DNA from: a virus
Taxonomy: Duplodnaviria > Caudoviricetes
DNA: 64,000 nt
Reading direction: 5' to 3' (one strand)
Virus record (IMG/VR): IMGVR_UViG_3300046681_000151
Span: 1-64,000 of that record
Of this stretch, positions 2,400-15,925 are shown piece by piece; position 1 is the stretch's first letter, and each line of letters starts with the position of its first letter. The position numbers were made by a program, and so were the translations under genes. A model generated the notes under the pieces. That model saw only the letters and a program-made list of their open reading frames with translations. It was not told the origin of the DNA and made no database searches.

Positions 2400-3605
2400 A
2401 TGACCTTCGCCGCCGCCCTCCGAGAGCACCGATACGCCCGAGGCATGTCCCTCGCCGATCTCGCTGAACAAGTCCACTACCACCGCGGGTTCATCCACCG
2501 CGTGGAGACCGGCGAGCGGGCCCCGAACCGGCAGCTCGCCGAAGCGGCCGACATCGCGCTCGGGGCCGGCGGCAAGCTGGTCCAGGCGTTCGAGCAGGAC
2601 GAGAGCGTGCGCCACGAAGAGGCCGCCACCCGCAAGGCGCTCGCCTCATCGCTCGCCACCACCCGCTCCCTGTGCGAGCTGGCGGACCTGGAGCTGGACG
2701 AGATCGGCAGCGGCGTGGAGGAAGCGGCGGTCGACTACCTCGGATGGCCGCCGGCCCCAATGCTCCAACGCGCGGACGTCCTGCGCACCGACGTGTTGCA
2801 GCGGCTGCGCGACTACCGGCACGGCCCCCACGAGCGCGCGGACCTGTACGTCGCGGCCGGCCGCCTGTCCGGTGTCCTGGCCTACGCCGCGCTCGACCTC
2901 GGTGACGCGAACGCAGCCTTAGAGCATGCTCGCGCGGCGGCCCGCTGCGCCCGGTACGCCGGAGACATGGAACTCCTGGTGTGGGTGCGCGGCACACAGT
3001 CGCTGATCGCCCGCTTCAACGGCGACTACGGCGTGGCCCTCGACTACGTCCGCGACGGCATGCAGCACGTCGCCGAAGGTGCCGGCACCGGCGAGGCCCG
3101 GCTGCTGTGCGGCGAAGCCCAATGCCTGGCCAACCTCGGCGACTCCCGAGCCGCGAATCAGATCCTCAACGCGGCCGAGCAGGCGCGCGAGCGCGTCCAC
3201 CAACCCGACTCGATCGCCGGCCTGTTCGAGTTCAGCGAGACGAAGCAGCGGTACTACGCAGGCTCGTCGCTGATCTGGCTCGACGGCGGCGACGACGCCC
3301 GCCGAGCAGCGACCGAAGCTCAGGCTGCGATCGACTCGTGGGAGCAGATGCCCGCCGAGCAGCGCTCACTCGATGACGAACGCCTGGCCCACATCTACAA
3401 GGCGACCGCCCTCGTGCAGCTCGACGACGTCGAGGGCGCCACGGACGCGATGGCGCCAATCCTCACGCTTCCGCGCGAGGCCCAAATCTCCTGGATCTCG
3501 AAGCGCGCCGGCCGCATCGGCTCGATGCTCAGCGCGCCAAGGTTCCAGGGCTCCCCCGCCGCTATCGACCTGAGGGAGGCGATCGCCGCACTGAAGACGG
3601 CGTGA
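2400..3605 (+). CDS. XRE-family HTH regulator with C-terminal TPR-like helical domain
   Basis: LREHRYARGMSLADLAEQV...HRVETGER XRE motif followed by Ala-rich helical repeats. Confidence 0.85.
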   Translation: MTFAAALREHRYARGMSLADLAEQVHYHRGFIHRVETGERAPNRQLAEAADIALGAGGKLVQAFEQDESVRHEEAATRKALASSLATTRSLCELADLELDEIGSGVEEAAVDYLGWPPAPMLQRADVLRTDVLQRLRDYRHGPHERADLYVAAGRLSGVLAYAALDLGDANAALEHARAAARCARYAGDMELLVWVRGTQSLIARFNGDYGVALDYVRDGMQHVAEGAGTGEARLLCGEAQCLANLGDSRAANQILNAAEQARERVHQPDSIAGLFEFSETKQRYYAGSSLIWLDGGDDARRAATEAQAAIDSWEQMPAEQRSLDDERLAHIYKATALVQLDDVEGATDAMAPILTLPREAQISWISKRAGRIGSMLSAPRFQGSPAAIDLREAIAALKTA

Positions 3606-13947: not shown

Positions 13948-14216
13948 GGTGTGCTCCTTGGTGGTGTGGGGTCGGGCATCGGGTTCTCCTGGGTGGTGGG
14001 GCGGGGCGGCGTGGGCTGCGGCCAGGAGGCCACAGGCGGCCCTAGGAGCCGCCAGGAGCGTCCGGGAGGACGCGGGGGGCCTCGACGGGCCCTGAGGCCG
14101 CCAGAGGCGAACTGGGAGCGCCAGGCGGGGCCTTCGCAGCCGCCCGACGCTGCCCCGGCTTCGCCGTCAGCAGCCCGTCCCGCACCGCCATCGCACGCAC
14201 CGCCCGCTCCAACACC

Positions 14217-14400
14217 GCAGCCAGCACCTGACCCGGTTGACCTCCTCCTAGGCCTAAAGGCCTGGGATTTCCGCCTGCTGCCACACGAGACGCGTGGGTC
14301 GCTTCGGGTGGGTTCCTGCTTCGCCGCGCTGCGCCGGGACGAGTCCCGGTCTTACCTGCGCTCCACAGGCTGATACCGCCAGTCCGGCGGCCTTGGCGAC
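14217..14400 (-). ncRNA. predicted omegaRNA (reRNA) plus flank-derived guide
   Basis: Position at the tnpB 3' end and right end; 5' boundary approximate; guide CCGGGTCAGGTGCTGGCTGC. Confidence 0.55.
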
Positions 14401-15486
14401 GTTGACCGCCGCATTGATGTCCCGGTCCAGAACCGCCCCGCACTCCTTGCATGTCCACACGCGGACACTGAGAGGCTTCGGGCCGTCCTTGACGCCGCAC
14501 ACGCAGCACACCTGAGAGGTGGGCTCGAAACGGCCGATGCGGTGAAAGGTGCGCCCGTAGCGGGCGGCTTTGTATTCCAACATCGACACGAATTGGGCCC
14601 AGCCGGCATCGTGGATCGACTTCGCGAGCCGGGTGCGGGCGAGGCCCTTCACGCACAGGTCTTCCACGGCGACCGCTTGGTTCTCGCGAATCAACTTCGT
14701 GGACAACTTGTGGTGAAACTCGCGGCGCGCGTCGGCCACCCGCGCATGCTGGCGGGCAACCTTGCGCCGGGCCTTGTCGCGGTTCTTGCTGCCCTTCTCC
14801 TTGCGGGAGAAGGTGCGCTGCGCCTTCTTTAGGCGTTTCTCGGCTCGACGCAGGAAGCGCGGCGAGGCGATCTTCGTGCCGTCCGAGAGGATCGCGAAAT
14901 GCCCGAGCCCTAGATCGACCCCGACTTCGGAGGCCGCCTGCGGCAGGGTCTCTTCCGGGCCGGTCTCGACGACGAAGCTGGCAAAGTACCGGCCCGCCCT
15001 GTCCTTGATCACGGTCACTGTGGATGGCGCCGAGGGCAGGCTGCGGGACCACTTCACCCGCACGTCGCCGATCTTCGGCAGTCGCAGCTTCTGCTCCGCC
15101 GTGATCGACCAGCGGGCGTTCGCCGTGAAACGAACCGACTGGCGGGTGTCCCGCTTGGACTTGAAGCGAGGCGCACCCATGCGTGGGCGCTTGCCCTTCA
15201 AGCCGTCGAAGTAGTTCCGGTAGGCCGCGTCCAGGTCCCTCAGGGACTGCTGAAGGACGACGGCCGACACTTCGCCGAGCCATGCACGGTCGGGCCGATT
15301 CTTCGCGTCGGTGATCACCAGCTTCGACAGGTCGCTGGCATTCGGAAATGGACTGCCGTTTCTGTAGGCGGTCTCCCGGGCCCTGAGAGCGTCGTTGTAG
15401 ACCACCCGAGCACACCCGAACGCCCTTGCCAACGCTGTGCGCTGACCGGCGCTCGGGTACAAGCGGAAGCCGTACCGAAGCTGCAT
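14254..15486 (-). CDS. tnpB: RNA-guided endonuclease TnpB
   Basis: RYGFRLYP HTH; RuvC GVDLG, VEDL, DRDINAA intact; CCVC/CKEC zinc finger. Confidence 0.95.
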   Translation of the reverse strand: MQLRYGFRLYPSAGQRTALARAFGCARVVYNDALRARETAYRNGSPFPNASDLSKLVITDAKNRPDRAWLGEVSAVVLQQSLRDLDAAYRNYFDGLKGKRPRMGAPRFKSKRDTRQSVRFTANARWSITAEQKLRLPKIGDVRVKWSRSLPSAPSTVTVIKDRAGRYFASFVVETGPEETLPQAASEVGVDLGLGHFAILSDGTKIASPRFLRRAEKRLKKAQRTFSRKEKGSKNRDKARRKVARQHARVADARREFHHKLSTKLIRENQAVAVEDLCVKGLARTRLAKSIHDAGWAQFVSMLEYKAARYGRTFHRIGRFEPTSQVCCVCGVKDGPKPLSVRVWTCKECGAVLDRDINAAVNVAKAAGLAVSACGAQVRPGLVPAQRGEAGTHPKRPTRLVWQQAEIPGL

Positions 15487-15534
15487 GGTCCCATTGTAGA
15501 CCCATATTGGGACCAGTGCCAGAATGGGACCATG
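15484..15534. promoter_or_regulatory. symmetric divergent leaderless promoters/operator
   Basis: Perfect 12-bp IR CATGGTCCCATT...AATGGGACCATG; TACAAT-GGGACC-ATG (tnpB) and CAGAAT-GGGACC-ATG (RHH). Confidence 0.7.
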
Positions 15535-15714
15535 ACGAAGCATGTGAACCTGCGTCTCCCGGACGACGTACACGAAATGGCCGTGGCCGCAGCGGTATCC
15601 GACGACCGTTCTCTGAACTCTTGGCTGATCGCTGTCGTTCGACGAGCCGCAGCCGAGACCGCCAGTGCGGAGAGCGCAGATCCGCGCCCGCGACCAAACC
15701 CGAAACGTCCTTGA
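15532..15714 (+). CDS. Arc/HicB-like ribbon-helix-helix DNA-binding protein
   Basis: KHVNLRLPDDVHE...DDRSLNSWL. Confidence 0.8.
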   Translation: MTKHVNLRLPDDVHEMAVAAAVSDDRSLNSWLIAVVRRAAAETASAESADPRPRPNPKRP

Positions 15715-15925
15715 GGTTCGCTTCGCCGCCAGGCCGGATCGCGGTGCGCAGCGGGTAGCAGTCGGCGATGATCCGCTCGGCGTCGGCGGTCAGGTACTTG
15801 CGCGTCGACTGGCGGCGGCGGGGAGGCGGGGTACGAGTGGTGCGGTCAGGCATCGGGTTCTCCCTTGCGGCTGGATAGGGTTCGGGCCAGACCCGCGCCG
15901 CTACAGACGGCGCGGGTCGCTGCGT

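Follow-up and report, generated by a model that had tools for sequence, protein, structure and literature searches.

Open reading frames (ORFs) for Arc-like ribbon-helix-helix (RHH) proteins are linked to TnpB, to homing endonucleases and to other mobile elements (Zedaveinyte et al. 2023, doi 10.1101/2023.11.20.567912). Moon, Zedaveinyte, Wiegand and Sternberg (bioRxiv 10.64898/2026.09.24.754181, 4 Oct 2026; Moon et al. below) describe arc genes inside insertion sequence (IS) elements of the IS605 family, either as arc+tnpA+tnpB or as arc+tnpB alone, and often with tnpB divergent from arc. In their assays the chromatin immunoprecipitation sequencing (ChIP-seq) peaks of Arc, also of Arc from arc+tnpB elements, lie on the intergenic promoter, where the motifs overlap -35 and -10, and Arc represses a tnpB-promoter reporter; the repression is lost on mutating either the strand residues or the site. 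In archaea, an RHH/MazE gene lies upstream of, and in the same direction as, the genes of immobile TnpBs with a rearranged RuvC-III, and these pairs have been proposed to be putative toxin-antitoxin (TA) systems (Altae-Tran et al. 2023, PMC10691335). Here we describe an RHH-tnpB element that occupies positions 14237-15754 of the IMG/VR virus record IMGVR_UViG_3300046681_000151, the first 64,000 nucleotides (nt) of which were analysed and are called the window. Judged by its architecture, the locus matches the known Arc-containing IS605-family elements and would belong with them; this layout was described in 2023 and assayed in 2026 in other bacteria.

On the evidence of its sequence, the element is a non-autonomous insertion of the IS200/IS605 family, 1518 bp long, in a soil actinobacterial phage of about 93 kb (the source record has 93,470 bp, is judged 99% complete and has one tnpB). 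It comprises, in order, the left end, an arc-like RHH gene, an operator/promoter spacer, tnpB, the omega RNA and the right end, and the RHH gene and tnpB are its only conserved genes. The reading that we favour, with a probability of roughly 0.8, is that an Arc-type autorepressor gates two overlapping leaderless promoters, those of the RHH gene itself and of an intact tnpB, in a non-autonomous element with a decayed end. The RHH protein would form a dimer of the Arc/Mnt type, and such dimers would bind ATGG-NN-CCAT sites that overlap the -10 ends and the start codons of both genes, and also a core in the middle of the spacer. The bound protein would cover the -10/+1 region of both promoters as well as the spacer of the tnpB promoter, and this occupancy would shut both promoters, with the result that RHH autoregulates and TnpB is kept low. 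Spread of the copy, if there is any, would proceed by TnpB cutting and subsequent recombination. We infer DNA binding, repression, leaderless starts, nuclease activity and the immobility of this copy from comparisons of sequence.

The boundaries of the element were established from empty sites. A search that started from the 64-aa frame lying downstream of the right end brought up six related viral contigs (L136-L141; four belong to records of 87-91 kb), and in all of them the sequence of window 15857-15753 runs straight into that of 14236-14037. Since 15755 is joined to 14236 in six empty sites, the inserted segment is 14237-15754 and holds both tnpB and the RHH gene. The junction is ambiguous by 3 nt, CCG being the only bases common to both junctions, and there is no target duplication. 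An earlier note on this DNA, made from the sequence alone, had placed the element at 14237-15754, which matches the insertion boundaries within these 3 nt; it had also named beforehand, as a possible refutation, an RHH gene lying outside the element, and the comparison with the six contigs places the gene inside. The view that the RHH gene is an ordinary phage regulator which merely adjoins a solo tnpB insertion could draw on the many small RHH genes that phages carry, but is refuted by the empty sites, which are without both genes together; the recurrence of the pair in unrelated contexts also speaks against it.

In runs X1 (possibly the source) and X2 both junctions are spanned by contigs identical to the window, and in run X3 the left one is, which shows that the insertion did not arise in assembly. 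The run search listed no RNA run that contains the locus. In run X2, one contig with a depth of 31.6 joins 14142 to 15851 and thereby skips the element, as would be expected of an IS-free relative in that sample, and the contigs that are identical to the window and carry the element have depths of about 8-15. Filled and empty alleles thus seem, from these contigs, to co-occur in the X2 rhizosphere sample. The target is a 97-aa phage ORF, interrupted by the element and uninterrupted in L139. No Pfam or PHROG family matches the target gene, and no homologue of the target-gene piece was found in the INPHARED phages. The insertion lies directly 3' of GCTAC on the minus strand. This pentamer is kept in four of the six empty sites and reads GCTAT and GCCAC in the remaining two; six canonical copies also have it 5' of their left ends, as does L133, a Streptomyces RHH-tnpB element with a TnpB 85% identical to that of the window. 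As a minor observation, the two halves of the target gene are in frame with each other across the element (1518 bp = 3 x 506), and a 603-aa frame (14042-15853, minus strand) is open through its whole length; by a rough estimate, the chance of such an open frame in high-GC DNA would be a few percent.

The spacer between the two start codons (15487-15531, 45 bp) carries the features on which the proposed regulation depends. It is framed by a perfect 12-bp inverted repeat, CATGGTCCCATT (15484-15495) and AATGGGACCATG (15523-15534), in which both start codons are included; none of 300 shuffles in which CAT and ATG were held fixed had a repeat of equal length. Each arm is a 10-bp near-palindrome, ATGG-NN-CCAT, such as one RHH dimer would be expected to recognise. 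The site on the tnpB side overlaps the start codon of tnpB (first two bases) and the -10 hexamer (last two bases). The inverted repeat and the further TGGGACC between the genes, at 15508-15514, had both been pointed out in the earlier note and are confirmed. Counted from centre to centre, the tnpB-proximal site is 22 bp from the middle one, and the middle site is 17 bp from the RHH-proximal one. TGGGACC is not enriched in the window, where 8 copies are found and 12.3 expected, nor in the 93-kb genome, with 12 copies; the only cluster in either is formed by the three copies in the spacer.

Neither the left nor the right end contains TGGGACC, which bears on a role of the RHH protein in transposition, at the element ends or on single-stranded intermediates, instead of in transcription. 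The RHH frame extends into the left end, and regulation of transposition is listed as one possibility by Zedaveinyte et al. (2023). The conserved repeats, however, are situated in the promoter spacer, and the published Arc assays show promoter binding (Moon et al.); a transposition role is, in our opinion, hardly credible.

A promoter scan of 1.8 kb returned one site, CTGGCA-18-TACAAT, where 0.1 is expected in shuffles. The -10 hexamer of this tnpB promoter ends 6 nt before the ATG, the A of which is the seventh nucleotide after it. By inspection, the same elements are seen in mirror order ahead of the RHH gene, as CAGAAT-GGGACC-ATG. The earlier note had proposed the succession of -10, GGGACC and ATG for both genes; the part concerning tnpB was recovered by the scan, and the part concerning the RHH gene was seen by inspection. 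The -35 of the tnpB promoter overlaps the putative -10 of the RHH gene, so that the two promoters overlap back to back. The 6 nt between the -10 and the ATG are too few to accommodate a ribosome-binding site, and leaderless transcripts are accordingly predicted for both genes. Leaderless mRNAs are common in actinobacteria.

Table 1. Predicted features of the element and its flanks in window coordinates
Feature	Position	Strand	Basis or remark
Target gene, C-terminal part	14042-14236	-	joined to N-terminal part in empty sites
Guide portion of omega RNA (predicted)	14217-14236	-	20 nt of phage DNA directly 3' of right end
Right end and omega-RNA scaffold	14237-14466	-	overlaps tnpB 3' end; right end stops at 14237
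tnpB, 410 aa, RNA-guided nuclease (predicted)	14254-15486	-	domains, intact motifs
Candidate operator by tnpB, near-palindrome ATGGTCCCAT	15485-15494		sequence, inverted-repeat test; identical in L005 and L008
tnpB promoter	15493-15522	-	-35 CTGGCA (15522-15517), 18-nt spacer, -10 TACAAT (15498-15493)
Middle candidate operator core TGGGACCA	15508-15515		within tnpB promoter spacer
Putative RHH -10 CAGAAT	15520-15525	+	inspection and symmetry with tnpB side
Candidate operator by RHH gene, near-palindrome ATGGGACCAT	15524-15533		holds first two bases of RHH start codon
arc-like RHH gene, 60 aa	15532-15714	+	divergent from tnpB; Pfam, profile, model
Left end and subterminal region, degenerate	15666-15754	-	alignment to canonical left ends, DNA folds
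Target gene, N-terminal part	15755-15853	-	contiguous with 14236 in L136-L141
Pentamer GCTAC, resembling a target-adjacent motif (TAM)	15755-15759	-	phage flank, directly 5' of left end

The RHH protein consists of a core, residues 1 to about 45, and an unconserved tail encoded by left-end DNA. It matches the Pfam Arc family with 25.4 bits (cut-off 20.4), and the HicB and TacA antitoxin families as well, the HicB match being confined to the RHH domain. A profile of 21 RHH homologues matches Mnt in the PDB with E 1.7e-6 and Arc with E 1e-3 to 1e-2, and aligns H4, N6 and R8 of the window protein with H6, N8 and R10 of Mnt. In the AlphaFold model (mean predicted local distance difference test score, pLDDT, 77), residues 1-10 are extended and are followed by helices 11-23 and 28-48; the tail is of low confidence (pLDDT 57-64). 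The 20 top Foldseek matches listed are all RHH proteins (Arc, AmrZ, KacA, AtaR), with probabilities of 0.75-0.99; their E-values of about 0.3-1 are weak since the chain is small. The likeness to Mnt and Arc of phage P22 (PDB 1mnt, 1arq, 1par) lies in the RHH fold, the best profile matches and the strand residues H, N and R, which are those of Mnt. Mnt and Arc bind symmetric operators as dimers of dimers. The window repressor differs from them in being encoded in a transposon instead of immI, in its operator spacings of 22 and 17 bp, and in its disordered tail, which contains nothing equivalent to the tetramerisation domain of Mnt. The earlier note had likened this tail to a remnant of a TnpA tail. 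That origin is rejected: the DNA of the tail aligns with a subterminal stretch of the left end that is non-coding in canonical copies, and is common to the RHH-bearing L133.

The antitoxin families among these matches, and the name 'HicB family antitoxin' given to some of the homologues, are in favour of an addiction module of the TA type, in which the RHH protein would neutralise TnpB by protein contact, as proposed for the archaeal RHH/MazE-TnpB clade (Altae-Tran et al. 2023). That clade has in common with the window element a small RHH protein linked to TnpB without a transposase. The occurrence of Phd/YefM-like genes in the same slot in two viral contigs, L009 and L010, points in the same direction. 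In the window, however, the genes are divergent and do not form an antitoxin-first operon, the pair lies inside a bounded insertion, and D356 completes a canonical D-E-D triad in place of the rearranged RuvC-III of the archaeal TnpBs. Type II antitoxins usually grip their toxins with their tails, whereas the RHH tail is not only unconserved and encoded by left-end DNA but has also been swapped between lineages. With respect to HicAB, no HicA-type toxin gene lies beside the RHH gene within the element. On balance, an addiction module is very unlikely. A complex prediction for TnpB with two RHH copies had a score of 0.00, gave no verdict and is not used as evidence in either direction.

Autorepression, the reading favoured here, finds comparative support in the joint inheritance of the RHH core and its operator. 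Inverted-repeat arms that cover both start codons are present in 8 of 21 RHH-tnpB pairs (the window, L113, L114, L115, L118, L120, L122 and L132), and in seven of these eight no more than 2 of 300 shuffles did as well. The window element is a mosaic. Its left end and RHH tail are 63% identical to those of L133, 25% to those of L116 and 39% to those of L113; the corresponding values for tnpB are 78-84%, 62-63% and 65-67%. For the RHH core they are 53% (L133), 81% (L116) and 74% (L113), and for the spacer 44%, 67% and 89%. L133 is therefore the closest of the three in left end, RHH tail and tnpB, and L116 and L113 are closer in RHH core and spacer. L113 is the same locus as L005; its spacer is 89% identical to that of the window although the two TnpBs share no more than 64% identity. 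The window tnpB is nearer to the Streptomyces copies than to L005 and L008, and this holds from its first 60 nt on. The mosaic pattern indicates that the DNA-binding core of the RHH protein and the operator have been exchanged together between elements, as predicted for a functional repressor-operator pair. The recurrence and co-inheritance of RHH gene and operator, for which the earlier note had proposed a search, are supported. The RHH tails group by left end, not by RHH core.

In some relatives the tail types are conserved (L114, L117, L122, L126 and L132; L116, L120, L124 and L125) and read through left-end hairpin DNA. Such types are common to elements with TnpBs only about 27-64% identical to that of the window, a pattern suggestive, as far as these alignments go, of recombination in which one module (left end, arc and operator) is joined to different modules of tnpB and right end.

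Several points weigh against the autorepression proposed here. The symmetric layout is not universal, since 13 of the 21 pairs are without an inverted repeat that spans both start codons. For the RHH promoter no -35 can be recognised, and the promoter scan accordingly did not return it; the 17-bp spacing of two of the site centres is off helical phase. Finally, the variation of the repeat core with the N-terminal strand of the RHH protein was seen by eye, with no statistics. By inspection, the strand KHVNLR goes with the half-site GGTCCC/GGGACC, KLNLR with GGCCC/GGGGCC, IRFSLR with GGCGCC, V(R/Q)xTLR with GACAC/GTGTC, and VNFNLR with GCACCC.

The slot of the RHH gene is that of a transposase in the closest relatives of the element. 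A survey of TnpB relatives gave 80 genome loci that were kept, mostly from Streptomyces and with 75-86% identity, and 29 viral loci. None of the 80 genome loci has an RHH gene. In most of them a Y1 tnpA, divergent from tnpB and about 30 bp upstream of it, takes the position of the RHH gene, and in phage PIS 136, too, tnpB is divergent from a Y1 tnpA. An RHH gene is present in three of the viral loci (L005, L008 and L013). The location of the RHH gene in the tnpA slot, as read earlier from the sequence, is thus upheld by the closest Streptomyces copies.

When the search was made from the RHH side, 58 homologues were found at E <= 1e-3, mostly in Streptomyces and named 'Arc family DNA-binding protein' or 'HicB family antitoxin' in the source; there was no RHH homologue at E <= 0.01 in the INPHARED phages. 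Of 401 sampled Streptomyces genomes, 17 have a homologue, with 20 loci in all; a divergent tnpB lies within about 15-90 bp at 17 of these loci (the exceptions are L119, L121 and L128), and seven of eight RHH loci in viral contigs, L005 and L008 being among the eight, also have a divergent tnpB. Overall, the RHH gene stands divergently beside tnpB in 24 of the 28 loci examined, which answers the search for such pairs called for by the earlier note. The partner TnpBs are 27-85% identical to the window TnpB, and the 1.5-2-kb flanks of these RHH loci showed no Y1 tnpA. Correct on the architecture and on the probable function, the earlier interpretation was wrong on the origin of the tail, and its suggestion of a partly domesticated TnpB is unsupported: six sister contigs are without the insertion, which interrupts a 97-aa phage gene, and the architecture is common in Streptomyces chromosomes.

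In the two viral contigs L009 and L010 the slot divergent from tnpB (2772-3003 in both) holds a 60-aa gene resembling Phd/YefM, with Pfam scores of 34.2 bits in L010, above the cut-off, and 27.8 bits in L009, below it. The repeat CATGTAC...GTACATG in these contigs contains both start codons and follows the same logic as the RHH operator. The L010 protein has no match in the 401 Streptomyces genomes, and among the viral contigs it matches only its own.

The nuclease that would be repressed appears to be intact. TnpB contains the Pfam domains OrfB_IS605, Cas12f1-like_TNB and HTH_OrfB_IS605, scores 351 bits with the NCBIfam model guided_TnpB (cut-off 100) and 374.7 bits with the exception model IS200_TnpB, which is under the cut-off of 425, and matches ISDra2 TnpB (8bf8/8exa/8h1j) with E 1.3e-76. 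The RuvC triad D191/E275/D356 is present, and so are the four cysteines of the CxxC...CxxC zinc finger (C327/C330 and C346/C349); at the level of motifs, the earlier description of tnpB as catalytically intact holds. The right end was fixed by homology to a related element that is present in six copies in a single Kitasatospora genome, and by the empty sites. In an alignment of 19 sequences, the window and 18 relatives, the 230 nt ending at the right end yield 59 consensus pairs, of which 17 show compensatory changes. The pairs of this predicted omega RNA are kept in the window except for one C-A mismatch in the terminal right-end hairpin. No Rfam family reaches its threshold on the omega-RNA region. 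A sub-threshold match to the Rfam family HgcC (14224-14363, minus strand; 17.6 bits with a gathering threshold of 50, E 0.38) falls on the predicted scaffold.

An intact TnpB with an omega RNA could serve the phage. TnpB would cut IS-free sister phages during co-infection and so copy the element or exclude rivals, and the RHH protein would time the cutting. The preservation of TnpB and omega RNA despite a decayed left end agrees with this idea, as do the guide, which corresponds to the uninterrupted allele adjoining GCTAC, the joint occurrence of element-bearing and element-skipping contigs in run X2, and the designation of TnpB as a homing endonuclease by Zedaveinyte et al. (2023) and Moon et al. 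The guide, however, has 2-3 mismatches to each of the six empty sites: near the TAM, position 6 is mismatched in all six and position 3 in four of them. Both are third codon positions (CCG vs CCC; GGT vs GGG or GGC). These mismatches, together with the altered pentamer in two of the six empty sites, make homing against these six relatives doubtful, though relatives outside this sample may be targets. Furthermore, the insertion destroys a phage gene, and elements of this type are common in bacterial chromosomes, with nothing phage-specific about them. A phage-serving role is, on the whole, rather unlikely.

A wider proposal, which combines homing with the repression favoured above, is that the RHH core and the start-codon operator are a portable brake cassette exchanged by recombination between unrelated TnpB lineages (27-86% identical). 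In phages the cassette would make a homing nuclease, gated by the repressor and aimed at IS-free sister phages, out of a TnpB with a decayed end and no TnpA, and Phd/YefM, a second and unrelated fold, would have come to fill the same slot under an operator of like design. We offer this proposal tentatively, as possible with the odds against it. If true, a small autorepressor in the transposase slot would be a general, convergent solution.

The window element has in common with the Arc-containing IS605 elements the position of the RHH gene within the IS boundaries, its divergence from tnpB, and an intergenic region with a bidirectional promoter (predicted here) and a repeated motif overlapping promoter elements; the form with arc and tnpB alone is also known there. 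The assayed examples are of the Clostridia type, whereas the window element is high-GC, actinobacterial and phage-borne, and the two are compared by architecture. The available main text of Moon et al. makes no mention of Streptomyces, Actinobacteria or leaderless genes. Further differences are that the window genes look leaderless, that the operator palindromes include the start codons, and that an exchange of RHH core and operator between TnpB lineages is seen for the window element. Worth recording are thus the palindromic operators embedded in the start codons of two genes predicted to be leaderless, the cassette swap, and the combination, in a phage, of a decayed left end and an intact TnpB. 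The Arc-TnpB brake, which has been assayed in Clostridia-type elements so far, would be extended to high-GC actinobacteria and their phages, by a case in which the insertion boundaries are exact and the operator design is unusually easy to read. The joint inheritance of repressor core and operator would add natural-history support to the published repression model. The pairs are candidates for ready-made orthogonal repressor-operator systems for the control of compact TnpB editors, and the filled and empty alleles in one soil sample make TnpB homing between phages testable.

Compared with the canonical IS605-type elements of Streptomyces and Kitasatospora (L033-L112) and with ISDra2, the window element has a right end and omega RNA of the same kind, a homologous left-end sequence, GCTAC on its 5' side and, with respect to the Streptomyces copies, a TnpB that is 75-86% identical. 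It differs in that the RHH gene and operator replace tnpA and in that the left-end hairpin has been lost. Canonical left ends form an 8-bp hairpin, with fold z-scores of -3.99 and -3.28, and L133 has a z-score of -1.69. In the left end of the window, which is without about 9-10 nt of the canonical tip, the hairpin was not found and the z-score is +0.92, in agreement with the degeneracy suspected earlier. Subterminal hairpins at both ends are a trait of IS200/IS605 elements; here the right one is present and the left one absent. The missing left hairpin fits a decayed copy and not a different family, and the copy is probably no longer excisable by TnpA supplied in trans.

Altered ends and decay are also seen among the relatives. 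Two of the Kitasatospora copies, L109 and L111, have a right end truncated inside the terminal hairpin and the same right flank; the left flank of L111 is an inverted copy of the right flank, and this copy may be a nested or rearranged insertion. In L035 the RuvC-I aspartate is changed to glycine, and L116 is without the RuvC-I region and without the tnpB-proximal operator arm. L008 has, past the RHH stop codon (about 2690-2790), a right-end-like hairpin followed by a perfect hairpin with an 11-bp stem (GCCGGATCGCC...GGCGATCCGGC), and its left end is unlike that of the window.

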